A stretch of DNA of 11,467 bases from Candidatus Krumholzibacteriia bacterium (GTDB lineage Bacteria; Krumholzibacteriota; Krumholzibacteriia; WVZY01): positions 1-11,467 of the forward strand of contig JAOTUR010000097.1 of NCBI GenBank assembly GCA_029863805.1, given 5' to 3'. The translations under genes were made by a program, and so were the position numbers. Positions 287 to 11,467 of the stretch are shown here, piece by piece. The notes under the pieces are model-generated. The model saw nothing but the letters and a program-made list of their open reading frames with translations, ran no database searches and was not told the DNA's origin. Each line of letters begins with the position of its first letter. The stretch's first letter is position 1.

Positions 287-721
287 CTATCTCCCTTTGA
301 TGTAGTTTTCCAGCTGCTCGATCATGAACTCCTGCTCTGAAATAGTGGCCTTGATCACGTCACCCGACGAAAAGACGCCCAAAAGCCGCCCCTCCTCGAG
401 AACCGGCAGATGACGGATACGCTTTTCAGTCATGATCGCCATACACTCCTCGAGCGAATGCGTGGGTGTGACGTATAGAACCTTCGTAGTCATGATGTCC
501 CTTACCGGTGTTTGCTTGGACGAACGTCCCTTGAGGATCACCTTTCTCGCGTAATCCCGCTCGGAAACGATTCCCACCAATTCGCTCCCTTCCATGACTA
601 GCAGCGCCCCCACGCTCTTGTCCGCCATCAGCGCGATGGCATCATACACGGAGGTTTCGGGAGCGACTGACCACACGTCGTTCCTCTTCTTTTCCAGGAG
701 CTGCCGGACGGTTGTCATCAT
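287..721 (-). CDS. Stand-alone CBS-pair (tandem CBS domain) protein, about 144 aa
   Basis: The ORF 287..766 (-) translates to two CBS-like repeats (VYDAIALMADKSVGALLVM...LVGIVSERD and LEECMAIMTEKRIRHLPVLEEGRLLGVFSSGDV). I prefer the internal start MMTTVRQ at 721 because AAAGGAG lies 6 nt upstream (reverse complement of 722-735 reads gaaaggagtccaATGATG). The TAG stop is at 289-287, only 9 bp from the convergent mscS stop. Confidence 0.8.
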   Translation of the reverse strand: MMTTVRQLLEKKRNDVWSVAPETSVYDAIALMADKSVGALLVMEGSELVGIVSERDYARKVILKGRSSKQTPVRDIMTTKVLYVTPTHSLEECMAIMTEKRIRHLPVLEEGRLLGVFSSGDVIKATISEQEFMIEQLENYIKGR

Positions 722-750
722 TGGACTCCTTTCTTGACACGGGTTTTTGC

Positions 751-802
751 GACCGGCCTGAATCACCGGCCGGGCCGGTCAATTATAGGTCAAACTCTGA
801 CC
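751..802 (-). promoter_or_regulatory. 5' leader/promoter region of the CBS gene with two palindromes (GACCGGCC-14 nt-GGCCGGTC at 751-780; GGTCA-AACTC-TGACC at 788-802) and a minus-strand TATAAT (787-782)
   Basis: The inverted repeats are read directly from the sequence. The reverse complement of 782-787 is TATAAT, which would put the GC-rich hairpin inside the 5' UTR of the CBS-protein mRNA, upstream of its AAGGAG RBS. Confidence 0.3.
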
Positions 803-971: not shown

Positions 972-3917
972 ATGAGCCGATACAAAATCGACCGTGTTTT
1001 CTTATTTGGTGTCGTCATCTTGATGCACACCACCGCACTTCCCCTTCGTGCGCAGGAGGAGTATTTTCAACAGTTTGTACACTATACGATTCGCGCGCGA
1101 CTTGACAGCAAGAACCACAGACTCACTGGCAAAGAGACGATCGTCTACAGGAACAACTCGTCCGACACCCTCAAGACGTTTTATCTACATCTCTATCCCA
1201 ATGCGTACAAATCAAAGAATACCGCGTTGATCAAGGATATCCGGCGCTCGTTCAATTATTCGTGGATCGATCTCCCCAAAAAGCACAGGAGCTATCTGAA
1301 CATCTCGGGCGTAACGGTAAACGGCCGGGATGTGAATGCAAAGATCGACGACACCATCGCCATGTTCGATCTGGCCGCGCCGCTCTTGCCGGGCGACAGT
1401 CTGGAGGTATTCCTCGAGTTCGACCAAAAGATCCGGCGGCACATTGGTCGCGCGGGGTACAGGGGAGAGCAATACGATTTTGCGCAGTGGTATCCCAAGG
1501 TCGTGGTCTACGATGAGGACGGGTTTCACCCCGACAAGTTTCGCCGGGGTGAGTTCTACGGCGAATTTGGCACGTTCGATGTGCACCTCGAAGTCCCGGA
1601 GCACTACGTGGTGGCTGCGACTGGGGTGCTGAAGGACGGTGATCCCGGCTGGACCCTCAACGCCGTGGACAAGAAGAGTGCAGCGAGGAAGAAGGGCGAA
1701 ACCGCTTACAAGACCGTGCACTTCCACGCCGAAGATGTACATGACTTTGCGTGGAACGCCAATCCGGCGTTTGTCGTCCAGGATACAACGTGGAACGACA
1801 TTCACATCAAGAGCTTTTTCCGCAAGCATAATCGGGCTTGGAAAGACACGACGTTGGTTCACGCCGTGCGGGCGATACAGTGGCTGTCTGAACGTGTCGG
1901 ACCCTATCCCTACCCACAGGTGAGCGTGGTCGAAGCGTTGCTTAGGGGTGGTATGGAGTACCCCATGCTGGTGATGGACGGCCGGGTTAGCGAGGGCCTG
2001 GTGTTGCACGAGATCGCCCACATTTACCACTACGGCATTCTCGCAAACGACGAGCGAGAGGAGGCCTGGCTGGACGAGGGCTTTGCCACATTTCAGTCCG
2101 CCTGGTATCAACTGGAACGTTACGGTGAGCATGGAATAACCCGCGACTGGAATTGGTACCAGAAGATCACTCCCCAGTACACGGTGCTGGGAAACGCGCG
2201 GCGATGGCTTTTCAGAGTCGTGCGCCCGGGCTACGGCGAACGCATCTCCACACGGGCCGAGGATTTCAAAAACAGTTATGGAGAGATGGTGTACCGCAAG
2301 GCGGCGCTGGTGCTTTTCAGCCTGCGCTATGTCGTGGGCGAGGAGAACTTCGATCGCATTCTCAAACAATACTACGACAAGTGGAAGTTAAAACACGTAA
2401 ACGAGAGACGTTTTCAGACGGCTTGCGAAGAAGTAAGCGGCATGGATCTATCGTGGTTTTTTGAGGAGTGGCTGCATACAAAAAAGATTTGCGATTATCG
2501 CCTGGCCGAGGCAAAGACTGCACCGAGCGAATCAGGCGACGCGTATGCTGTAGACATCAAGATCGAGCGTCTGGGCGAGATCATCATGCCTCTGAAACTA
2601 GAATTCACTTTCGCCGGCGGCGGCAAAGAGACGGCACGGTTGGACGGCCGCCCGCGAACCATAAAGCAATCGTATGCATTCCCCGAGAAACCCAAGGCGG
2701 TTGCGCTGAATCCGGGAAATGAGATTATCGACATCAATATGTCCAACAACTTTCTACCTCGCAGGCGGGCGCTGCAAATCGACTGGCCCAATAACGAGTA
2801 TTATCCCGAGGACGCTTATCAAATCCGTTATAGCCCGTTTGTTTGGTACAACGACGTCGATCATTTGAGGCTGGGGCTGCACTTGAAGGGCAGCTACTTC
2901 GACTGGCATCGCCGTGTGAGGCTTGGTGTCTATTACGGCACCAACAGTGAGCGTTTGGACTTTCTGGCGTCGTATACCAAACCGGTCAGGATTTTTGGTA
3001 ACAATGGGACTTTGAAGACTTCGGGTTACAAGCTGGAAGGCAGACAGGATTTTGCGTTAACCCTCGATCTCAAGAAGAGAAACGAGCTGATCCGCCCCCC
3101 CACGCAGCGGCTGAGCATCGGAGTCAACTATCACGAACTGACCGATCGCCGCTATGTGGCCAACGCGACAGAAACCTATCAAACCGGTGCTGTGGTTATT
3201 CCCCTACAACTCGGATACAGCATCGATCCACAGCTCGACATCCTCCAGACAGAACTCCGCCTGGGACTTCGCTTCGGCAGACGGTGGTTTGGGGGCGATT
3301 ACAAATACAGCAGCTTCACCAGTTCGGCTGCCGTCAGGACCCGGCCACAGCTGGTGCCCTTTGATGCCGGTCTTCGGCTCTTTCTGGGAATCGTCGGTGG
3401 CAGCATGCCGCTGCAGGAGAAATTCAGTCTGGCGGGTGCGGGACCGCTAGGGCAAGAGAAGTTGTTTTTCTTGAGGAGCGATGGGGCAATCTGGCCCGAT
3501 GTGAATTATCACATGCCGGGGGACGGCAACCTGCGGGGATACGCGGACGGGGCTTTTGGTGTGAACCGGCTGCTGGCAGTGAATCTTGAACTCGGCAAAG
3601 CCATCCCCTGGCTCTCCAAAGCGCCGGACCGCTGGCTGGGAACCGCAAAGCTCGTGGCTTTTGCCGACGCGGGAACTGTCTTCGATCGCGATAACCCCGT
3701 AACGAGCAGTACTCGCATCCAGCAGCTGGTCGACGAAGGGATTTTGGACAAGGGTCTTTTTGACGCTGGGGTCGGGTTGCGGTTAAAGCGGCACCTTGGG
3801 GTCTACAACGTGGATCTTCGTTTCGATGTTCCCTTCTACGTAAACCACCCAGAGATCAACGGCGAGAAAGACGAAACCAAGTATCGCTACTTGCTGAGCC
3901 TCACATCGTTTTTCTGA
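972..3917 (+). CDS. Secreted gluzincin (M1-like) zinc metallopeptidase domain fused to a C-terminal Omp85/bacterial-surface-antigen-type outer-membrane beta-barrel (981 aa)
   Basis: N-terminal signal-peptide-like segment MSRYKIDRVFLFGVVILMHTTALPLRAQ. GGMEYP (GAMEN-like) sits at about aa 325. HEIAH is at aa 346-350 (nt 2007-2021), with E in WLDEGFATF exactly 18 residues after the second His, the HEXXH-X18-E gluzincin signature of family M1. An all-beta-looking linker spans aa ~508-590 (AVALNPGNEIIDINMSNN). From about aa 592 (nt ~2746) an amphipathic beta-strand-rich ~390-aa region carries the FSLAGAGPLG...GDGNLRGYADGAFG (Omp85 loop-6 [VIL]RG[FY]-like) and AFADAGTVFD motifs. The protein ends in ...KYRYLLSLTSFF (C-terminal Phe, the OMP signature). 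The ORF is a single intact frame. Confidence 0.85.
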   Translation: MSRYKIDRVFLFGVVILMHTTALPLRAQEEYFQQFVHYTIRARLDSKNHRLTGKETIVYRNNSSDTLKTFYLHLYPNAYKSKNTALIKDIRRSFNYSWIDLPKKHRSYLNISGVTVNGRDVNAKIDDTIAMFDLAAPLLPGDSLEVFLEFDQKIRRHIGRAGYRGEQYDFAQWYPKVVVYDEDGFHPDKFRRGEFYGEFGTFDVHLEVPEHYVVAATGVLKDGDPGWTLNAVDKKSAARKKGETAYKTVHFHAEDVHDFAWNANPAFVVQDTTWNDIHIKSFFRKHNRAWKDTTLVHAVRAIQWLSERVGPYPYPQVSVVEALLRGGMEYPMLVMDGRVSEGLVLHEIAHIYHYGILANDEREEAWLDEGFATFQSAWYQLERYGEHGITRDWNWYQKITPQYTVLGNARRWLFRVVRPGYGERISTRAEDFKNSYGEMVYRKAALVLFSLRYVVGEENFDRILKQYYDKWKLKHVNERRFQTACEEVSGMDLSWFFEEWLHTKKICDYRLAEAKTAPSESGDAYAVDIKIERLGEIIMPLKLEFTFAGGGKETARLDGRPRTIKQSYAFPEKPKAVALNPGNEIIDINMSNNFLPRRRALQIDWPNNEYYPEDAYQIRYSPFVWYNDVDHLRLGLHLKGSYFDWHRRVRLGVYYGTNSERLDFLASYTKPVRIFGNNGTLKTSGYKLEGRQDFALTLDLKKRNELIRPPTQRLSIGVNYHELTDRRYVANATETYQTGAVVIPLQLGYSIDPQLDILQTELRLGLRFGRRWFGGDYKYSSFTSSAAVRTRPQLVPFDAGLRLFLGIVGGSMPLQEKFSLAGAGPLGQEKLFFLRSDGAIWPDVNYHMPGDGNLRGYADGAFGVNRLLAVNLELGKAIPWLSKAPDRWLGTAKLVAFADAGTVFDRDNPVTSSTRIQQLVDEGILDKGLFDAGVGLRLKRHLGVYNVDLRFDVPFYVNHPEINGEKDETKYRYLLSLTSFF

Positions 3918-3938: not shown

Positions 3939-5474
3939 TCAGTGGTCGGCACGGATGTCCACGCCCGTCATCTCCGGCGGTGGGTCGATGCCCAGATAGT
4001 TGCAGATGGTCGGAGCGATTTCCTTGAGAGCCCCATCCCGAATCAACTTTCCTCGGTAGTGTTGATCGACCAGGACGCAAGGCACCGGCAAGGTGGTGTG
4101 CGCCGTATGCGGCCCACCGGTTGCCGGGTCGACCATCATCTCGGCGTTGCCGTGATCGGCGCTGACGATGGCGGCATCCGTCTCGAGATCCATCGCATCG
4201 AGTACACGACCGACGCAGGTGTCCACGGTCTCGACGGCCCTGATTGCCGCCTCCAGCACACCGGTGTGGCCCACCATATCCGGGTTGGCATAATTGCAGA
4301 TAATGTAATCATGTCGTCTTTCGCCCAGGGTCTTAACCAGAGTGTCGGTCAGCTCATAGGCGCTCATCTCGGGCTTCATATCGTATGTGGCCACTTTGGG
4401 AGAAGGGATCAGGATGCGATCCTCTCCCCGGAAGCTCGCCTCCTCGCCGCCATTAAAAAAGTAGGTCACATGGGCATACTTTTCCGTTTCCGCAATACGC
4501 AGGCTCGTGCACCCGGCATTAGCCGTAACCTCGGCGAGGATGTTCTTGATGTGAATTGGCGGAAAGGCAACGGGCAGTGCAAAACGACGGTCGTACTCGG
4601 TCATGCACACGAACTTGACCTTTGGACACCGATCGCGCACAAATCCCTCGAAATCTCGATCGTTGAAGGCGCTGGTAATCTGCCGGGCCCGATCGGCCCG
4701 AAAATTGAAAAACACAATCGCATCGCCATCGATGACGTTGCCAACCGGCTCACCTCGGTCGTCTACTACAACAATAGGCTCGATGAATTCGTCGGTGACC
4801 CCTTCATCGTATGAACCTTGCAGCGCGACGCGACAATCCCTGGTTTGGTTTCCCTTTCCCACCGTGTAGGCATCGTAGGCCTTCTTTACGCGATCCCACC
4901 GTTTGTCCCGATCCATACAAAAATAGCGGCCGACCACCGTGGCGACGCTTCCGATCGCTTTGTCTGTAAAGATCTGCTCGAGCTCGGTGAGAAATCTTTT
5001 GCCACCGGTGGGGGAGGTATCGCGTCCATCCATGATGGGATGGACAAAAACTGTCCCCACTTTGTTGCGCTTGGCCATTTCCAGAAGCGCGTGGAGATGA
5101 TCCAGAGAACTGTGCACACCACCCGACGAGAGCAGCCCCATCAGATGAAGCCTGCCTTTGGGCTGCACCGCGCGAACCGCGCTCAGCAGCGCCTCGTTCT
5201 CGAAGAAATCGCCGGCTTGGATAGACTTTGAGATCCTCGCTATGTCCTGATAAACCACGCGTCCAGCACCCAGGTTGAGGTGGCCGACCTCGCTGTTTCC
5301 CATCTGTCCATCGGGCAGCCCCACGTGAGCGCCGGATGTGTTGAGCGTCGTATACGGGTAGTCCTTACAGATTCTGTCGACCACCGGCGTCCTGGCCATC
5401 TTTACCGCGTTTGCACGAGCGTCTTCGCGCAGACCCCAGCCGTCCATGACAATAAAGACAACGCGTCTTTTCAA
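3939..5474 (-). CDS. gpmI: 2,3-bisphosphoglycerate-independent phosphoglycerate mutase (iPGM)
   Basis: 511-aa translation with hallmark iPGM motifs: VVFIVMDGWG, GNSEVGHLNLGAGR, HLMGLLSSGGVHS, ADHGNAE, and the expected length. The start codon at 5474 appears to be TTG (reverse complement reads TTG AAA AGA CGC GTT = M K R R V), preceded by a G-rich stretch. The stop TGA is at 3941-3939, 21 bp from the convergent upstream gene. Confidence 0.9.
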   Translation of the reverse strand: MKRRVVFIVMDGWGLREDARANAVKMARTPVVDRICKDYPYTTLNTSGAHVGLPDGQMGNSEVGHLNLGAGRVVYQDIARISKSIQAGDFFENEALLSAVRAVQPKGRLHLMGLLSSGGVHSSLDHLHALLEMAKRNKVGTVFVHPIMDGRDTSPTGGKRFLTELEQIFTDKAIGSVATVVGRYFCMDRDKRWDRVKKAYDAYTVGKGNQTRDCRVALQGSYDEGVTDEFIEPIVVVDDRGEPVGNVIDGDAIVFFNFRADRARQITSAFNDRDFEGFVRDRCPKVKFVCMTEYDRRFALPVAFPPIHIKNILAEVTANAGCTSLRIAETEKYAHVTYFFNGGEEASFRGEDRILIPSPKVATYDMKPEMSAYELTDTLVKTLGERRHDYIICNYANPDMVGHTGVLEAAIRAVETVDTCVGRVLDAMDLETDAAIVSADHGNAEMMVDPATGGPHTAHTTLPVPCVLVDQHYRGKLIRDGALKEIAPTICNYLGIDPPPEMTGVDIRADH

Positions 5475-5499: not shown

Positions 5500-7758
5500 T
5501 CAGTTTGCTTTCAGTTGAGACCGAACTTTGTCCAGGTTCACCTGCGCGCTACGATTCGCCGGATCGATCACAAGCGCCTTCTCGAACTCTGTCTCGGCAA
5601 GGTCCAACAACCCCATCGTAGCATAAATAGATCCCAGCGTGAGATGACCGTTGGCATATTTGGGTTCGATCGCCACCGATTCTTCGCTGTAGCGGCGAGC
5701 CCGATCGAGCTGTTTGAGTGACATGAACATCACCGCCAGATTGTTCATGGCGTAAACATCTTCGGGGTTTAGCTGGATGGCCTTTTTTAGCGATGCCTCC
5801 GCCTTGTCGTACTGCTTCAGCTTGCCATAACAAACCCCGAGATTATTGAGCGCACCGGGAAAATTCGGATTGATCGCCAATGCCTTTTCGAACTCGGCTA
5901 TCGCCTCACTGTACCTGCCTTGTTCCTGGTATCGTTGTCCCAGGTTGTTGTAGGCGTCCGGATTGTCGGGAGTGATATAGCCGAGGGCCTCGAGCTTTTT
6001 TAGCGCCTCATCGGTGGCCGCTCCACCGCTGGTGAGCGCCAGGTCGTCAACCTCGCGCTCCCGATCGAGCGAGGACACCACGCTCCGGTTCACACGCGAT
6101 GCGAGAACATCTGCAAAAGCGCTCTCGAGAATCTTGCCCGGCATATCCTGCGGCTTTGGTAATCCCTGCAAGGCGAGGAAGGTTGGGGCAATATCCAGGA
6201 TAGAGGCGCCCTCGATCGCGAACCCTGTGCGAATGCCGTTGCCATAGAGACAGATGATCCCATCGAGGCGATGCCAAAAGGCCGCTTTGCCCGCCCAAAT
6301 CTCGGGACGCTGCTGGGGTCGCGACTCACCGCTTTTGAAGCCATGGTCTGAGGCTACGATGAGAACCGTGTTGTCATCGCACTTGTCGATGAACTCACCG
6401 ATGATGCTATCCTGCATAACGTAGGCGGCGGTGACCGCATCCTTGTTTATCTCGTATCCCGATTCATCGACGTGAGGTCGACGGGGTGGCGCATAGTGCA
6501 TGAAGAGGTGCTTTGTCGCATCCACCAACTCAAAATAAGTCGCCAAGAAATCGGGCTGATCACCGGCAAAAAGGTGATTGGTAATGCGGCGATAGGTTTT
6601 GGCGGAGGCATACAGCATGAGCATGCTGCTGATCGGATTCTTGGGATCGAACGCGCTCGATCGGTTCTGTATGAACGCCGCCCGATCCAGATGTACGAAC
6701 GGATAAAACTCCTCGTAACTCACTGAGGTGCTCGGCGTCACCAGACCCCTTAGCTCGTCCATTCGCTCGACGGGCGAGACAGTGCCTGCCGTCGCCTCCC
6801 CGGCATCCGCGTAGGCCAGATAGCCAAAACGATCCGTCACCATAACGCCACTTATCGGTTCCGCCGGAAACGTCGCCAGCCATCCGATCACGTCGACCGA
6901 CCGGTGGTAGTCGCTGAGGATATTCCAGAATGCATCCACCTTGCGATACAGCCGGCTTATCGGTAATTTCTTTCCCGTCTCGGGATCCGCCACGGTGAAA
7001 TTCAGGATGCCGTGCTCTTCGGGCAGTCTTCCGGTCGCCATCGTTGTCCAAATCAGCGGTGAGAGCAAAGGCTCGATCGAGGTGAGCGGGCCGCTGGCGC
7101 CCTCGCGAACCAATTTCTTGAAGTTGGGCAAGCGATTCTGGGCAATGAGTTCGTCGATGATGTGCCAGTCTGCACCGTCGACGCCGACGAAAACGACTTT
7201 GCGAAGCGGCCGGGGATCTACAGAAAGGGGCAAAACATCACCGCTGACCTGCCACTCGTCCACTCGGCATGACATGACAGAGAAGCCGGCGTTTGTTACC
7301 TCTCCCGCTATACCGGTGACGATGGCTTCCGCAAAGCCATCGGGCATCGCTCCCGTACTCGTCACAGAAAAGTTCGCCGTCTCGATCTCGACGGTCTCTT
7401 TTACAATTCGCTCCGAGCCGCTGTAAAAATCTTCACCCAGCGTGCTGTAGATGGTTTGCGCCGTTCCCGGCGGCACCTCCAGGCGCAGGCTGACAGCGAC
7501 CGAGACATCCACTCCGTCGCCCGACAGAACCGGATAGGCTCCCTGGTCAGGATACCGGTACTCCACCTCTCCGACCGGGTAGATGATAAACGGTCCCGCA
7601 AAAGGACGTACAAAATGCGTGCCGGCACCATAGCCCGCAGACATCCCCTTCTTGCCGATAAGGATTGCCTGGTGACCGTTGGGGACGCGCTTAATAGTGC
7701 TCCCCAGCACCACGGCGATGACTGCTACACCCAGCGCGGGTAGGAGGTATTTTTTCAT
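5500..7758 (-). CDS. Membrane-anchored multidomain protein: N-terminal TM/signal anchor, SPFH(band-7)-like region, type I phosphodiesterase/nucleotide pyrophosphatase (alkaline phosphatase superfamily) domain, C-terminal TPR repeats (752 aa)
   Basis: Start chosen at MKKYLLPALGVAVIAVVLG (ATG at 7758-7756). GAGGA lies 9 nt upstream (reverse complement gaggataactgccATG). The track ORF extends 41 codons further upstream, but without an RBS there. VPNGHQAILIGKKG...GTHFVRPFAGPF resembles the start of SPFH/band-7 domains. VVFVGVDGADW...SPLIWTTMATGRLPEEHGI...ASDHGF match the nucleophile and metal-ligand motifs of PF01663-type NPP/AP-superfamily enzymes. The C-terminus has about 4-5 TPR units (AYNNLGQRYQEQGRYSEAIAEFEKALAINP; GALNNLGVCYGKLKQYDKAEASLKKAIQLNP; AMNNLAVMFMSLKQLDRARRYSEESVAIEP; GHLTLGSIYATMGLLDLAETEFEKALVIDP). 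The stop is 25 bp upstream of the gpmI start on the same strand. Confidence 0.8.
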   Translation of the reverse strand: MKKYLLPALGVAVIAVVLGSTIKRVPNGHQAILIGKKGMSAGYGAGTHFVRPFAGPFIIYPVGEVEYRYPDQGAYPVLSGDGVDVSVAVSLRLEVPPGTAQTIYSTLGEDFYSGSERIVKETVEIETANFSVTSTGAMPDGFAEAIVTGIAGEVTNAGFSVMSCRVDEWQVSGDVLPLSVDPRPLRKVVFVGVDGADWHIIDELIAQNRLPNFKKLVREGASGPLTSIEPLLSPLIWTTMATGRLPEEHGILNFTVADPETGKKLPISRLYRKVDAFWNILSDYHRSVDVIGWLATFPAEPISGVMVTDRFGYLAYADAGEATAGTVSPVERMDELRGLVTPSTSVSYEEFYPFVHLDRAAFIQNRSSAFDPKNPISSMLMLYASAKTYRRITNHLFAGDQPDFLATYFELVDATKHLFMHYAPPRRPHVDESGYEINKDAVTAAYVMQDSIIGEFIDKCDDNTVLIVASDHGFKSGESRPQQRPEIWAGKAAFWHRLDGIICLYGNGIRTGFAIEGASILDIAPTFLALQGLPKPQDMPGKILESAFADVLASRVNRSVVSSLDREREVDDLALTSGGAATDEALKKLEALGYITPDNPDAYNNLGQRYQEQGRYSEAIAEFEKALAINPNFPGALNNLGVCYGKLKQYDKAEASLKKAIQLNPEDVYAMNNLAVMFMSLKQLDRARRYSEESVAIEPKYANGHLTLGSIYATMGLLDLAETEFEKALVIDPANRSAQVNLDKVRSQLKAN

Positions 7759-7926
7759 GGCAGTTATCCTCGGTGACGGCTGCGCAGATCGAAGTCGGTG
7801 AGCCTGAAAAGACGGGATCTTCGAGTCGCCGCAGCGTAATGCGTCGATTTCCAAAGTAGCCACTTTGCGAGTCGGGGTCAAGCGGGTTGCAGCCCGGTGC
7901 CTGGGCGAAACCGTTTGTTTTTACGC

Positions 7927-7956
7927 TAGTCATGCCGCCGGGACCTAAGATATAAT
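7927..7956 (+). promoter_or_regulatory. Putative sigma70-type promoter for the GT2/rmlD-like operon (-35 TAGTCA 7927-7932, 18-bp spacer, -10 TATAAT 7951-7956)
   Basis: A perfect TATAAT hexamer is seen directly in the sequence. A 4/6 match to TTGACA sits at the correct spacing. It lies in the 195-bp divergent intergenic region. Predicted only; it would place the transcription start near 7963. Confidence 0.3.
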
Positions 7957-7993
7957 GTGGCCTTATCGATCGCCCGGCGTCCGGTGCCCCACC

Positions 7994-8923
7994 ATGATAG
8001 CCTCGAGCCAAACAACGTCTTCCACCGCTGATCCTGCCCATACGCTACGAGTGGCTATTATCGTGCTGACGTGGAACGGCAAGGCGCTGACGCTCGACTG
8101 TCTCGAATCGCTTGTCGCCCTCGACCATATGAACACGGACATCATCGTCGTCGACAACGCCTCCGCAGACGGCACCCCGCAGGCGATCGAACAGCGTTAC
8201 GGCGATCGCATCACAGTGATCGTCAACGAACAAAACCTGGGGTACTCGCAAGGCAACAACGTCGGCATTACTCACGCGCTCGATACCGGCGCAGGATACA
8301 TATTGCTACTCAATAACGACACCATCGTGGACCGTGCGCTCGTAGACAATCTGCTATACGCTTTCGCAACCCATGCACGGACGGGCATAGCTGGGCCGAA
8401 GATTTACTTCGCTTCGCCACCCGATCAGATTTGGTTTGCGGGGGGAGAGGTTTCGCTTGCCAAAGGCACGGCTCGGCATATCGGCATCCGCCATCGGGAC
8501 GTCGGACAATTCGACTCGATGCGTGAAGTGGACTACGTCAGTGGTTGCGCGCTGATCGCAAAACGCGAGGTTTTCCAGACGATCGGTCTTCTTGATCCAT
8601 CGTACCGGGCTTACTTCGAGGACACGGACTTTTGCATGCGAGCGAGAAGGCACGGTTTCGAGATCCGCTATGTACCCGCCGCGAAAGTCTGGCACAGAGT
8701 GTCATCCAGCGTCGGCGGCCAGTTGAGCTGGCGCAAAATGTCCCAAAAATTTAAGAGCACGCTTCGATTTTTCGCACGTTACTCTTCACTACATCACTGG
8801 CTCACCATACCTCTGTTCTTTGCTTTTGACGTGGTGAGAATTGTTGCTCTGGTTCTACGTGGCAGAATAAGAAACGTGACGGATGTCGAGAATGCATCCG
8901 GGTCGGGCGGAGACCAACCATGA
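7994..8923 (+). CDS. Family 2 glycosyltransferase (GT-A fold), with C-terminal membrane anchor
   Basis: LRVAIIVLTWNG...DIIVVDNASADGT (DxD-type motif)...GYILLLNNDT...YFEDTDFCMRARRHGFEIRYVP are typical GT2 signatures. The C-terminal HWLTIPLFFAFDVVRIVALVL is a hydrophobic hairpin. The track ORF begins at 7955, but that ATG overlaps a perfect TATAAT (7951-7956), so the downstream ATG at 7994 (MIASSQ...) is preferred. Neither start has a clear Shine-Dalgarno sequence, so the start is uncertain (7955 is the alternative). The stop TGA 8921-8923 overlaps the next gene's ATG. Confidence 0.75.
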   Translation: MIASSQTTSSTADPAHTLRVAIIVLTWNGKALTLDCLESLVALDHMNTDIIVVDNASADGTPQAIEQRYGDRITVIVNEQNLGYSQGNNVGITHALDTGAGYILLLNNDTIVDRALVDNLLYAFATHARTGIAGPKIYFASPPDQIWFAGGEVSLAKGTARHIGIRHRDVGQFDSMREVDYVSGCALIAKREVFQTIGLLDPSYRAYFEDTDFCMRARRHGFEIRYVPAAKVWHRVSSSVGGQLSWRKMSQKFKSTLRFFARYSSLHHWLTIPLFFAFDVVRIVALVLRGRIRNVTDVENASGSGGDQP

Positions 8924-9780
8924 CAATCGCCATCATCGGCGCCGATGGTCAGCTGGGCAAAGATGTGCAGCTGGCGCTAAAGGCGCACGACACGAGGCCC
9001 ATCGCCCACGGCGAGGTCGACATCACCGATGCCGCGAAGGTCGTCGCGGCCATCGCAGCCATTCACCCCGACTGGGTGATCAACACCGCCGCCATGACTC
9101 ACGTCGATGACTGCGAGGGGCAGCATATGAGGGCGTTCGAGATCAACGCCTTGGGTGCCCGTCACGTGGCTGAGGCGAGCCGGCAAGTCGGTGCCGCCTT
9201 GATCCATATAAGCACCGATTACGTGTTTGATGGTGAGAAGAAGACGCCCTACATGGAAGGGGATGCCACACATCCGTTAAATGTCTACGGAATCTCCAAG
9301 CTCGCAGGTGAATTCTATGTCCGCAACACCTGCCCCGTTTACTATATCATTCGCACCAGCGGTCTCTACGGTACCCACAAATGCAGGGGCAAGGGCCAGA
9401 ATTTTGTAGAGACCATGCTGAAGCTCGCCAAGGAAAAGGAGAGCCTGCGTATCGTGAGCGACGAAGTGTTGACACCCACGTTTACCGAGGACCTGGCGCG
9501 GCAGATCGATGTGCTGGTCGAGTCTAAACCACCCCACGGCATCTATCACGCAACTAACGACGGCGCATGTTCGTGGTTCGATTTTGCCAAAGAGATCTTC
9601 CGCATTGCGGCGATTGAGGTCGCCGTCGAAGAAACGACGGCCTCGCAGTGGAATGCCCCGGCCAGGCGTCCGGCATACTCGGTGCTCGAAAATAAGGCGC
9701 TAAAACGAGCCGGCATCGACGCGATGTCGCACTGGAAGGACGCACTGGGGCGTTATCTGTCCAAGAAGATCGGGCGCTAG
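8920..9780 (+). CDS. rmlD: dTDP-4-dehydrorhamnose reductase family (RmlD-like) NAD(P)H-dependent sugar-nucleotide reductase
   Basis: 286 aa. N-terminal Rossmann motif IAIIGADGQLG. YGISK (the YxxxK catalytic pair of SDR/RmlD). The RmlD-typical layout (INTAAMTHVDDCE...ISTDYVFDG...P...NVYGISKLAGE) and length. GGAG lies 7 nt upstream of the ATG at 8920. The start overlaps the GT2 stop (ATGA), indicating translational coupling. Confidence 0.75.
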   Translation: MTIAIIGADGQLGKDVQLALKAHDTRPIAHGEVDITDAAKVVAAIAAIHPDWVINTAAMTHVDDCEGQHMRAFEINALGARHVAEASRQVGAALIHISTDYVFDGEKKTPYMEGDATHPLNVYGISKLAGEFYVRNTCPVYYIIRTSGLYGTHKCRGKGQNFVETMLKLAKEKESLRIVSDEVLTPTFTEDLARQIDVLVESKPPHGIYHATNDGACSWFDFAKEIFRIAAIEVAVEETTASQWNAPARRPAYSVLENKALKRAGIDAMSHWKDALGRYLSKKIGR

Positions 9781-10046
9781 AAGATCGTCTTTAGCAGGCC
9801 GATGACGCCCAAAACAACAAAGGCGACCGGCACGACGAGAATCGTAAAGACAAACGGCAGGACAACCGATGCCAGCCCCAACATGAGCGCGACCACGGGG
9901 ATCAGGAATATCAATCCCAATACACCTTTTACCAGGCACAGCGCCAGTTTGAAGGGCAACAACACACACCAGAACAATATCTTGAGCAACGCGACGAAGA
10001 AAATACCCAGTAAGGCAATCACCGCTAAAGCGACGAGCAGCTCCAT
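9777..10046 (-). CDS. Hypothetical small integral membrane protein (90 aa, about 3 TM helices)
   Basis: ORF 9777..10124 (-). Start chosen at MELLVALAVIALLGIFFVALL (ATG 10046-10044) with GAGGTG about 12 nt upstream. Almost entirely hydrophobic (L/V/I/F/A), with a few Lys and essentially no acidic residues after the N-terminus. It fills the otherwise gene-free 376-bp gap between the rmlD-like gene and the pepN-like gene. Its TAG stop (9779-9777) overlaps the rmlD-like TAG (9778-9780). No homolog recognised; it could be an antisense artefact of a T-rich strand. Confidence 0.45.
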   Translation of the reverse strand: MELLVALAVIALLGIFFVALLKILFWCVLLPFKLALCLVKGVLGLIFLIPVVALMLGLASVVLPFVFTILVVPVAFVVLGVIGLLKTIF

Positions 10047-10156
10047 GTCACGATCACCCACCTCATCGTTGGGGACGATATGAATTACGATGGAATTCCA
10101 AGAGAAGTTACACATCACCCACACAGTTTATTCGACGAGGAGGTCCCCCGTTGCAA

Positions 10157-11467
10157 ATGCGTAAAGTGAGATTAACTGTTCTAGCAACAATGGCTTGTGT
10201 CATTGCAATGCCTGCTGGCTCTCACGCGAGTCGGGTTGACCGACCGTATCAGCCCGACCCCCTGTCCTACGTCGCCCCCAGCCGCAACTTCCACACCATT
10301 CACACGCGGTTGGATCTCGACCTCGATTTGAAGCAACAATCCATCTCCGGTTCGGTCACCCACACCATGCGTGCGCTGCGGCCGCAAGTCACGTCCATCC
10401 GGTTGAACTGTGTCGGGCTAACCATCGAGGACGTCCACGTCAATGGCCAGCGGGCGGATTTCGAGTATCCGGTCGCCGGCGAGTTGGCCACGTCGTGGAT
10501 CGAGGTGGCCGACACCAAGGAAGCCGGTGACCAACTGGTCATCCATAGCGGCTCGCCTTTGCCCGAAGACCGTGATTTCGAGGTGACGATTCGCTACCGG
10601 GGGTCGCCTTCCGAGGGGCTGTATTTTGTGGCGCCGGAGAAAGGGATAAGCGACAAGCGGTACGAAGTGTGGGCACAGGGGGAGGGGGAGGACAATCGGT
10701 ACTGGATACCCTGCTACGACTACCCAAACGACAAGTCCACCTTTGAGGGGATCTTTAGGGTCGACAAAGGCTACTACGTGTTGTCAAACGGGGTGTTGGT
10801 CGACAAGAGGGATCTAGGTAACCAGACGCAGTATCACTGGAAGCTCGATACCCCCCAGGTGTCTTACTTGATCACGGTTGCCGCGGCCAATTACGAGGTA
10901 GTCGAGGACAAGTGGCGCGATGTACCTCTCCTGTACGTCGTTCCACCGGGGACCGACCGAGCCACCGTGCTGCGCGGTTTTGGTCTCACACCCAAGATGA
11001 TGGAGTTCTTTTCGGAGTACATAGGGATCGACTACCCGTTCAAAAAATACGGTCAAGTTGTTGTTCAGAACTTTATTTACGGCGGCATGGAGAACACCAC
11101 CGCCACCGTTATGAATGCGCGGACGCTCTACGACGAGCACATGGCGGTGACGCAGACTCAGCAGGGTCTGGTCGCCCATGAACTGGCTCATCAATGGTGG
11201 GGCGACATGGTCACGTGCAACGAGTGGTCACACATCTGGCTCAACGAAGGATTCGCGACTTACTTCCAATCGCTTTTCCGGGAGCACCACGATGGTGACG
11301 ACGCTTTTCGTTATCAGATCGACCAGCGCCATAAAGCCGTCATCACCAATGATGAACGCGACGCCCGTCCCGTCGTGGTCGACTTTTACAACCGTAAGGA
11401 CAGCCGGAACAGCGCCAACGTGTACACAAAAGGGGCCAGCGTGCTTCACATGCTGCGTTTTCTAATT
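10157..11467 (+). CDS. pepN: M1 family aminopeptidase N-like zinc metallopeptidase, secreted (N-terminal 437 codons; 3' end lies outside the window)
   Basis: ATG at 10157 preceded by GAGGAGG about 13 nt upstream. Signal-peptide-like N-terminus MRKVRLTVLATMACVIAMPAGSHAS. Canonical M1 motifs: GGMENTT (GAMEN exopeptidase motif), HELAHQWWGDMVT (HEXXH at aa 341-345), WLNEGFATY with Glu 18 residues after the second His. The frame runs open to the window end (exactly 437 codons). Confidence 0.85.
   Translation, partial: MRKVRLTVLATMACVIAMPAGSHASRVDRPYQPDPLSYVAPSRNFHTIHTRLDLDLDLKQQSISGSVTHTMRALRPQVTSIRLNCVGLTIEDVHVNGQRADFEYPVAGELATSWIEVADTKEAGDQLVIHSGSPLPEDRDFEVTIRYRGSPSEGLYFVAPEKGISDKRYEVWAQGEGEDNRYWIPCYDYPNDKSTFEGIFRVDKGYYVLSNGVLVDKRDLGNQTQYHWKLDTPQVSYLITVAAANYEVVEDKWRDVPLLYVVPPGTDRATVLRGFGLTPKMMEFFSEYIGIDYPFKKYGQVVVQNFIYGGMENTTATVMNARTLYDEHMAVTQTQQGLVAHELAHQWWGDMVTCNEWSHIWLNEGFATYFQSLFREHHDGDDAFRYQIDQRHKAVITNDERDARPVVVDFYNRKDSRNSANVYTKGASVLHMLRFLI

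Follow-up and report, generated by a model that had tools for sequence, protein, structure and literature searches.

SPFH proteins are understood as coiled-coil cages assembled around separate client proteins, as in HflK/C with FtsH, QmcA with YbbJ, and prohibitin; to our knowledge, the coiled-coil region builds all solved SPFH cages. In prohibitin, HflK/C and FliL, the SPFH domain faces the non-cytoplasmic side of the membrane. Within the alkaline-phosphatase superfamily, the NPPs carry an Asn after an HG-I-x-x motif (Asn111 of Xac NPP) that contacts the phosphoryl group. Characterised scavenging phosphatases have a Thr nucleophile, and Ser can fill this role in other members of the superfamily (alkaline phosphatase, iPGM). 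We found no study of a family combining SPFH, phosphodiesterase and TPR modules in literature on this architecture, on COG3379 or on Krumholzibacteriota phosphatases.

The locus that we analysed lies in a window of 11,467 nucleotides from the genome of an uncultured Krumholzibacteria bacterium (contig JAOTUR010000097.1). An open reading frame extends over 7881..5500 on the minus strand, and its preferred start is the ATG at 7758, which has an AGGA 8 nt upstream. The resulting coding sequence (5500..7758, minus strand; ATG at 7758-7756, TGA at 5502-5500) encodes 752 residues plus a stop, and the product is 100% identical to P0001, named 'MAG: alkaline phosphatase family protein [Candidatus Krumholzibacteria bacterium]' at NCBI. 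The gene is real, and it is conserved: 305 homologues were found at E<=1e-5, and the best 120 of these 305 are 47-69% identical to the target, most over the full length. A sequence-only reading had described the product as an unusual protein of four modules (a TM anchor, an SPFH domain, an NPP-type phosphodiesterase and TPR repeats). Pfam, hydropathy and AlphaFold analyses bear out this architecture; Pfam assigned Band_7, Phosphodiest and TPR alike, and every motif quoted in that reading is present (GAGTHFVRPF at aa 44-53, VGVDGADW at 191-198, SPLIWTTMATGRLPEEHGI at 233-251 and ASDHGF at 469-474). The word 'unusual' is apt in comparison with characterised proteins, but the same four-module layout is common to more than 100 clusters and constitutes a conserved family that already bears a generic annotation. 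The AlphaFold model has a pLDDT of 86.5 over the full length and of 92.7 over aa 1-186.

The catalytic domain (aa 187-560; 6079..7200, minus strand) is of the NPP type and carries a helical insertion at approximately aa 300-400. Pfam assigned Phosphodiest (PF01663) to aa 188-477 with 108.3 bits (E 8e-31; cut-off 23), leaving the C-terminal third of the profile unmatched owing to divergence and the insertion. The model predicts an alkaline-phosphatase-superfamily alpha/beta core whose closest relatives are NPPs, and its top structural neighbours include ENPP7 and ENPP6, which are lipid and choline phosphodiesterases. Seven residues (D194, S233, D413, H417, D471, H472 and H496) are invariant among 46 homologues of 46-66% identity, demonstrating that the catalytic residues are intact. 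Six of them make up a bimetal ligand set of D194, D413/H417, D471/H472 and H496; D194 falls in the column of the metal-binding DG Asp of Xac NPP, and the remaining ligands were assigned by motif and invariance.

The predicted nucleophile, from alignment and invariance, is Ser233 (codon 7060..7062, minus strand). Its column is that of Thr90 in Xac NPP and Thr64 in PhnA, a position marked by the T-to-A mutant entries 7mw8 and 3t02. The proposed NPP core thus stands as to family and motifs but not as to nucleophile: where NPPs have Thr in a T-x-P…TG loop, this family has an invariant Ser within LLSPL. As Ser serves as nucleophile elsewhere in the superfamily, we regard Ser233 as a variant and not as a loss. 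Asn253 is conserved in at least 90% of homologues and lies one residue before the Asn of NPP (Asn111 of Xac NPP), ENPP6 and PhnA in ungapped alignments; we count this one-residue offset of a near-invariant Asn against the functional explanation given below. The domain is neither a sulfatase nor a PglZ, as judged from Pfam scores, the lack of a C/S-x-P-x-R motif and the position of Ser233 in the NPP nucleophile column. The sulfatase family (PF00884) stayed at 14.5 bits, below its cut-off of 25, with a match confined to the C-terminal part, and the nucleophile sequence S-P-L-I-W contains no x-P-x-R; PglZ was not among the 25 best Pfam families for the protein (E up to 0.033).

The SPFH/Band_7 domain occupies aa 23-172 (7243..7692, minus strand). 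Although the sequence-only reading had rated this assignment its weakest, it holds. Band_7 (PF01145) matches aa 24-134 with 29.8 bits against a cut-off of 23.6, covering profile positions 2-110 of 176. A family profile searched against the PDB matched only prohibitin, QmcA, erlin and HflC (prohibitin-1, E 7e-5), and an exhaustive HMMER search with an N-terminal profile lacking the TM helix retrieved classical Band_7 proteins. When the TM helix was kept in the N-terminal profile, a word-indexed search for homologues gave no matches, probably because hydrophobic words swamped its candidate list. The model predicts the SPFH alpha/beta fold. The membrane anchor directly precedes the domain, and the alignment to prohibitin covers the TM helix of prohibitin as well; this family-profile alignment ends at PHB residue 170. 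The coiled-coil region of SPFH proteins is absent: in the AlphaFold model, the domain ends at aa 172 and the alkaline-phosphatase domain begins at 187, with no long helix between them. The intervening residues (aa 173-186, …SGDVLPLSVDPRPLR; 7201..7242, minus strand) form a flexible linker with a pLDDT of 62-71 and no predicted secondary structure.

Between the catalytic domain and the TPR module (aa 600-752; 5503..5961, minus strand) comes a second linker of low confidence (aa 561-599; 5962..6078, minus strand; pLDDT 52-69), which contains two short helices. Four to five TPR units had been claimed at the C-terminus; Pfam TPR_1/TPR_2 hits (TPR_1, E 2e-29) and predicted helix pairs (600-629, 634-663, 668-697 and 702-731) agree on four, followed by a capping helix at 736-751. 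Consensus TPR proteins match this region at E 1e-57.

Hydropathy and AlphaFold place a signal-anchor TM helix at aa 4-22 (YLLPALGVAVIAVVLGSTI, preceded by MKK; 7693..7749, minus strand). This is the single N-terminal hydrophobic helix expected, with a KD value of 2.17, and no other 19-residue window exceeds 1.6. In the model, the helix (5-19/21) is continuous with the first SPFH strand, which begins at aa 22. We also considered a cleavable signal peptide: the uncharged run of about 20 residues directly meets the K-R-V-P start of the SPFH strand and lacks a polar c-region, as in prohibitin and HflC. These features favour a predicted uncleaved anchor over a cleaved one. In 46 homologues, the uncharged run has a median length of 20 aa and the net charge averages +2.0 for the N flank and +1.0 for the C flank, and the more positive N flank favours an N-in orientation across the family; the target's own flanks (+2 and +4) do not favour it by themselves. 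Orthologues that lack SPFH, 57-69% identical over the catalytic and TPR modules, have lipoboxes or plain signal anchors at their N-termini (lipoboxes: LCVAGC in P0103, LTAAGC in P0108, FVISC in P0120), and the genes of two SPFH-less orthologues (P0020 and P0030) lie at the locus syntenic with that of the target. The lipoprotein signals on syntenic SPFH-less orthologues suggest a periplasmic location for the catalytic and TPR modules, which indirectly supports the earlier proposal of an extracytoplasmic catalytic domain. From these orthologues, we infer a probable type-II (N-in, C-out) topology with the soluble part in the periplasm. The SPFH proteins nearest to the target in sequence and fold (prohibitin, HflK/C and FliL), whose SPFH domains face away from the cytoplasm, are in keeping with this topology. 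Every form of the family has a membrane tether, be it TM plus SPFH, TM alone or a lipid anchor, and this points to action close to the membrane.

The core formed by the catalytic and TPR modules is present in at least 578 species genomes from Acidobacteriota, Myxococcota, Planctomycetota, Krumholzibacteriota and other phyla. Neighbour-joining and average-linkage trees of this core, which are simple distance methods that give no support values, place SPFH-less forms interleaved within the main clade and SPFH-bearing forms in several distant lineages. A history of a single gain of SPFH with no loss was rejected on this pattern. The SPFH domain has been lost repeatedly and is evolutionarily dispensable.

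Downstream of the target gene by 25-52 nt, on the same strand, lies gpmI (3939..5474, minus strand), encoding a 2,3-BPG-independent phosphoglycerate mutase (TIGR01307, 685 bits against a cut-off of 331), and we found no terminator-like site between the two genes. The same gene order occurs in L001-L006, L008, L010, L011, L013, L015, L017, L018, L090 and L091. Upstream, a 196-bp divergent intergenic region (7759..7954) is shared with a GT2 glycosyltransferase gene (7955-8923, plus strand; Pfam Glycos_transf_2), and a sigma-70-like site for the plus-strand gene, by consensus match only, lies at 7927-7956. The GT2 gene overlaps by 4 nt with rmlD (8920-9780, plus strand; TIGR01214, 312 bits, cut-off 224). 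Both syntenies, with gpmI and with GT2/RmlD, are conserved within the target's clade and specific to it, and we therefore rejected them as strong functional evidence. Across 80 GTDB loci, analysed by ORF calls, all-against-all BLAST clusters and Pfam searches of flanking genes, no candidate for a universal operon partner occurred in more than 9 loci; ORFs were called by greedy longest ORF, and some high-GC loci, such as L012, were mis-called. This lack of a family-wide operon partner, with weak and clade-specific context, counts against the functional explanation below. Other neighbourhoods include PMT_2 with DegT near the orthologue in L003, L008 and L091, and TMEM260-like or PMT_2 GT-C transferases beside the gene in 9 of the 80 loci, in other phyla. 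In L007, L012 and L014, which hold SPFH-bearing orthologues of 49-52% identity, the gene comes first in a run of co-directional genes for ATP sulfurylase, a PF01663 paralogue, APS kinase and then three further PF01663 paralogues. The orthologue in L009 is short and adjoins sulfurylase/APS-kinase genes, a sulfotransferase and two paralogues. Two of the neighbouring PF01663 paralogues appear cytoplasmic, with the domain beginning at residue 5-14. We also count this sulfate-activation context against the explanation that follows, which leaves it unexplained.

Taken as a whole, the data are best explained by a periplasmic, membrane-anchored NPP-type enzyme acting on an envelope-associated phosphodiester, a proposal in which we have moderate confidence and for which we count the envelope-glycan neighbours (GT2, RmlD, PMT_2/DegT and GT-C) and the structural likeness to ENPP7 and ENPP6. 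Our best reading is of a membrane-proximal phosphodiesterase or phosphotransferase whose TPRs recruit a partner or substrate. The TM helix would lead into an SPFH domain lying against the inner membrane on its outer face, an arrangement shared with prohibitin, HflK/C and FliL, and the short flexible linker would join it to a two-metal, probably Zn, phosphoryl-transfer domain of the NPP type. Attack of Ser233 on the phosphodiester would yield a covalent phospho-enzyme intermediate, to be resolved either by water (as a hydrolase) or by an acceptor hydroxyl (as a transferase). The four C-terminal TPRs may serve as a docking site for a protein partner or polymeric substrate, and the SPFH domain would be an accessory module that holds the enzyme near the membrane, possibly with self-association, and not the functional core. 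The likeliest substrates would be of this envelope-associated class, such as lipid head groups or the phospho-substituents of glycans.

A possible but less favoured explanation is phosphate scavenging, in which a membrane-tethered ecto-phosphodiesterase or phosphatase, in the manner of PafA, PhoK and bacterial NPPs, draws on organic phosphorus in the environment to free phosphate or nucleosides, and the TPR and SPFH modules are only tethering or stabilising appendages. Against it, the neighbourhood is stable and housekeeping in character (ATP synthase, gpmI, rhamnose/GT2), and no pst, pho or transporter gene lies within ~10 kb at any locus examined. Moreover, the invariant TPR module is not seen in the named scavenging phosphatases, and these use Thr where the present family has Ser.

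The SPFH domain had also been proposed to act as a microdomain scaffold, which our results weaken and do not establish. In its classical form, this would mean a closed cage or ring like that of HflK/C or prohibitin, corralling the catalytic domains and a client protein. We consider this unlikely, because the segments that form the coiled-coil wall and cap are absent, with a 14-residue disordered linker following aa 172, and because the domain has been lost repeatedly, syntenic orthologues having a plain TM helix or lipobox in its place. The N-terminal domain also evolves much faster than the rest of the protein (26-44% identity, against 46-66% for the whole). A speculative variant, which we think rather improbable, is that the coil-less SPFH domain may form a FliL-like periplasmic ring or arc on the inner membrane, generating a self-scaffolding phosphodiesterase/TPR array around a client machine such as a GT-C glycosyltransferase or glycan exporter; if true, it would be the first SPFH assembly with scaffold and catalytic client in one polypeptide.

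The sulfurylase/APS-kinase arrays and the sulfotransferase context described above raise a sulfation-linked role, in which the enzyme would work on an envelope molecule that is sulfated or derived from PAPS, for instance a sulfated glycan, a sulfated lipid or a phosphosulfate compound. We find this very unlikely: no such genes lie within ~10 kb on the target's own contig, the gpmI/GT2 context is the one found around most orthologues, the active site shows a phosphoryl-transfer bimetal layout with no formylglycine motif, and two neighbouring paralogues appear cytoplasmic where the target is predicted to be exported. Least probable is an inverted topology, in which the N-terminus would be outside and all three soluble modules (SPFH, catalytic and TPR) cytoplasmic, as in QmcA/YqiK-type proteins. 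The target's more positive C flank and the presence of QmcA among the SPFH sequence and fold matches speak for it, and the family-wide charge bias and the lipoprotein signals of same-locus orthologues speak against it.

The present result is well supported as a refinement of annotation, not as a surprising mechanism. Within the alkaline-phosphatase superfamily, the catalytic and TPR core makes up a large, uncharacterised branch, and identification of its substrate could bring to light a new envelope modification or a new way in which soil and sediment bacteria turn over organic phosphorus. A coil-less SPFH domain fused to a periplasmic enzyme would test what SPFH itself contributes, be it membrane apposition, lipid contact or lateral association, and the syntenic orthologues provide natural controls because they have a plain TM helix or lipid anchor instead.

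Among known systems, the NPPs (Xanthomonas NPP, ENPP4, ENPP6 and ENPP7) are only 17-21% identical to the target, which differs from them in its Ser nucleophile, the one-residue shift of the near-invariant Asn, the ~100-residue helical insertion at aa 300-400, and flanking SPFH and TPR modules that are found in no characterised NPP. The phosphonoacetate hydrolase PhnA, which acts on phosphonates, and the NPP-like alkaline phosphatases PafA and PhoK, which are monoesterases, are soluble and lack TPR, SPFH and membrane anchor. The periplasmic phospho-group transferases of the superfamily (EptA/MCR-1, LtaS/LtaP and BcsG-type enzymes) belong to the sulfatase-type Pfam family, have multi-pass membrane domains and are weaker structural matches than the NPPs; their likeness to the target concerns a possible working mode, not family membership. 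FliL, which associates with the flagellar stator, has no catalytic or TPR domain and no detectable sequence similarity to the target, which in turn lacks a flagellar context. Compared with prohibitin, HflK-HflC, erlin and stomatin, the target lacks the CC1/CC2 coiled coil and C-terminal cap segments, and SPFH is dispensable in its family. Whereas known SPFH scaffolds enclose a client that is a protein of its own (FtsH or an NfeD protein, for example), the SPFH domain described here is covalently fused to its enzyme.

The gene lies in an open frame on the minus strand of the window, running from 7881 to 5500. Its first ATG, at 7758, follows an upstream AGGA, and its product has 752 residues (MKKYLLP…QLKAN). 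This product is 100% identical to a protein listed by NCBI, which already has a generic name in the database and precomputed Pfam matches, and the window is part of a 47-kb ENA metagenome contig. As every motif quoted in a sequence-only reading lies where that reading placed it, its observation of a membrane anchor joined to SPFH, NPP-type and TPR modules stands.

We found a 108-bit match to PF01663 (Phosphodiest) at aa 188-477. Residues D194, S233, D413, H417, D471, H472 and H496 do not vary across 46 aligned full-length homologues (46-66% identity). Aligned to the Xanthomonas nucleotide pyrophosphatase/phosphodiesterase (Xac NPP) and to phosphonoacetate hydrolase, Ser233 occupies the nucleophile column, marked by mutant entries T90A (7mw8) and T64A (3t02), and D194 the DG metal-ligand column. 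Fold comparisons of the catalytic domain were led by NPPs (ENPP7, 25.1; Xac NPP, 24.4; ENPP6, 24.0; ENPP4, 23.7), followed by an S1 sulfatase (23.5), phosphonate monoester hydrolase (23.3), PhoK (23.2) and PafA (22.9), and Foldseek agreed. Together, the profile match, invariant residues and fold neighbours identify the domain as a predicted NPP-type member of the alkaline-phosphatase (AP) superfamily with a complete putative two-metal site, as proposed from the sequence. A sulfatase reading was rejected, as the sulfatase profile reached just 14.5 bits, in the C-terminal part, and the C/S-x-P-x-R formylglycine motif was absent from the catalytic domain. Phosphoryl transfer on a phosphodiester would proceed in the two-metal domain by double displacement, with Ser233 as nucleophile. 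We tentatively suggest an envelope lipid or glycan phosphodiester as substrate, not a soluble scavenged compound; the alternative that the protein scavenges phosphate is somewhat unlikely. At the C-terminus, Pfam and comparison with consensus TPR proteins gave four TPR units, and the predicted model has four helix pairs at aa 600-731 plus a capping helix, in agreement with an earlier estimate of 4-5 units. These repeats may recruit a protein or polymer.

The SPFH assignment, initially the least trusted, proved solid. Pfam Band_7 matches aa 24-134 at 29.8 bits, above its curated cut-off of 23.6. Against the PDB, the single sequence gave a marginal match to prohibitin-1 (E 0.002), and a profile of 27 homologous N-termini retrieved SPFH proteins only (prohibitin-1, E 7e-5, then prohibitin-2, QmcA, erlin-1 and HflC), its alignment covering prohibitin residues 13-170, the TM and entire SPFH domain, up to the coiled-coil start. 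When 1.84 billion representatives were searched exhaustively by HMMER with a TM-less N-domain profile, 188 proteins reached E<=1e-3. Members of the same fusion family or fragments of them took the first 18 places (E<=1e-10), ahead of ordinary Band_7 proteins of 250-320 aa. Fold comparisons ranked prohibitin-1 (14.1) ahead of erlin-2 (12.8), HflK and P. horikoshii stomatin (both 11.9), flotillin-1 (11.2), HflC (10.9), QmcA (9.7) and FliL (9.6). In the predicted model the SPFH domain stops at aa 172, and a 14-residue low-confidence linker leads to the catalytic domain from aa 187, with no coiled-coil region after the SPFH domain. In assemblies whose structures are solved (HflK/C, QmcA, prohibitin, flotillin, stomatin and erlin), the cage wall and cap are built from that region. 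Thus, the SPFH domain of the scaffold first envisaged is present but its coiled-coil region is missing, which makes a true SPFH cage or ring quite improbable; a self-scaffolding enzyme ring is highly doubtful.

A word-indexed search found 305 homologues; most of the best 120 have 725-800 aa and the same four modules, and where a source is named it is a MAG of Krumholzibacteria/-ota, Latescibacterota or Eisenbacteria. Scanning a single genome for each GTDB species by pattern, we counted at least 578 relatives. Among the matches listed, the AP+TPR core (query residues ~187-745; 29-38% identity) is common in Acidobacteriota, Myxococcota, Planctomycetota, Binatia, Nitrospirota, Desulfobacterota and Bacteroidia. 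The members in these groups have just ~30-130 residues between the ORF start and the catalytic DG motif and thus no SPFH domain. By hmmsearch of the 80 best loci, the N-domain occurs in the Krumholzibacteria/Latescibacterota group and in one Myxococcota, one Eisenbacteria and two Acidobacteriota MAGs. Clustering of 187 AP+TPR cores gave a main clade of 129 sequences, in which the SPFH domain is present in 114 and missing from 15. Those lacking it are interleaved with the rest, P0020, P0017 and P0030 ranking in the ten sequences closest to the window protein, and the N-domain evolves faster (26-44% identity vs 46-66% for the whole protein). From the interleaving and faster evolution, we conclude that the SPFH domain is an old but dispensable accessory; some membrane tether is kept in every variant. 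One Latescibacteria chromosome (L018) has a tandem duplicate of the complete gene (7647-9929 and 9926-12154; 760 and 742 aa; N-domain E 1e-42 in both), then gpmI. Three GTDB records (L014, L049, L072) are labelled with organisms ('Patescibacteria group bacterium', 'Nitrosopumilus sp.') in which a diderm-type lipoprotein enzyme is implausible; mis-binning or mislabelling of these MAG contigs is the probable cause.

In the window, a bona fide gpmI lies 25-52 nt downstream of the gene, with no terminator-like site seen between them, and a GT2 glycosyltransferase and rmlD are transcribed divergently. Every Krumholzibacteria or Latescibacterota locus that we examined has this order beside the ATP synthase operon, some with a PMT_2 GT-C transferase and a DegT aminotransferase next, and the gpmI/GT2/rmlD synteny is confined to that clade. 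No neighbour family occurred in more than 9 of 80 loci. SPFH-less members adjoin a TMEM260-like (PF11028) or PMT_2 GT-C glycosyltransferase, ~650 aa with its own C-terminal TPRs, in 9/80 loci (L031, L035, L040, L041, L045, L052, L066, L072 and L077; Acidobacteriota and Myxococcales MAGs), the sole partner recurring outside the clade. Together with the PAPS-synthesis clusters below, these recurrent contexts hint at envelope-glycan chemistry and define no pathway.

Orthologues also head four co-directional PAPS-synthesis clusters. In L007 (2459-10383), L014 (12278-21215) and L012 (14115-20938), the SPFH-bearing orthologue precedes ATP sulfurylase, a PF01663 paralogue, APS kinase and three more PF01663 paralogues; L009 (6988-13837) has a variant array with a sulfotransferase. 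PAPS synthesis is linked there to AP-superfamily enzymes, 2-4 paralogues being interleaved per cluster besides the orthologue; two of these, lacking an N-terminal extension, are probably cytoplasmic. The arrays favour a sulfation-linked role, which we nevertheless consider very improbable for this protein.

Elsewhere in the window, a plus-strand gene (972-3917) encodes a 981-aa protein with an M1 metallopeptidase domain (aa 341-500) and a C-terminal Omp85-like beta-barrel (PF01103, aa 837-944, 31 bits; also a weak TonB-receptor barrel match), an unusual peptidase and outer-membrane-barrel fusion found at the same position in syntenic L001, L003, L005, L008 and L090. A second plus-strand M1 aminopeptidase (Peptidase_M1_N and Peptidase_M1) begins at 10151 and runs past the window end at 11467; on the source contig its 892 aa include C-terminal HEAT repeats, and the ATP synthase operon comes next. 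Between rmlD/GT2 and this peptidase, a very hydrophobic minus-strand protein (9777-10124; ~89-115 aa, roughly three TM helices) has no Pfam or NCBIfam match and is kept in all syntenic loci (called 89-112 aa). The tandem CBS-domain protein (287-766, minus strand; 159 aa by ORF listing, 143 aa called on the source contig) is an ordinary neighbour.

Residues 4-22 are the sole hydrophobic segment (Kyte-Doolittle mean 2.17; <=1.6 elsewhere). Natural variants give the strongest evidence on topology: in twelve homologues of 606-617 aa the SPFH domain is missing and the AP+TPR part has 56-69% identity; two of them, P0020 and P0030, occupy exactly the syntenic locus of the window gene and are therefore orthologues. 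The N-termini of the twelve are lipoprotein signals (e.g. …LCVAGC, …LTAAGC, …FVISC) or a plain signal anchor, which places the predicted catalytic and TPR modules outside the cytoplasm, as first suggested for the enzyme. By extension, the SPFH domain would also lie in the periplasm, like those of HflK/C, prohibitin and FliL. Flank charges across the family (N side +2.0, C side +1.0) agree with this and, like the signals, argue against an inverted topology, to which we leave a very small probability because in the window protein itself the C flank is the more positive one (+4).

We propose a type-II inner-membrane protein whose periplasmic SPFH domain would lie on the membrane surface. It is very probable that the architecture, the catalytic competence and the location in the periplasm are as predicted; for the model as a whole, our confidence is evenly balanced. 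Our literature search found no study of an SPFH-AP-TPR family or architecture. As a generic name and Pfam matches already exist, what is new is the module combination and its implications for SPFH biology. The catalytic domain would act as NPPs do, passes most tests of NPP membership and is a variant with an insertion: its nucleophile is Ser where NPPs have Thr, its near-invariant N253 precedes the position of the canonical NPP Asn by one residue, and it departs from NPPs in a helical insertion of ~100 residues. The N-domain belongs to the SPFH fold family but, unlike HflK/C, QmcA, prohibitin, flotillin, stomatin and erlin, has no coiled-coil region. Its architecture is closest to that of FliL, a ring-forming single-TM protein with a periplasmic SPFH-like domain (PMC8794807, PMC6426602).
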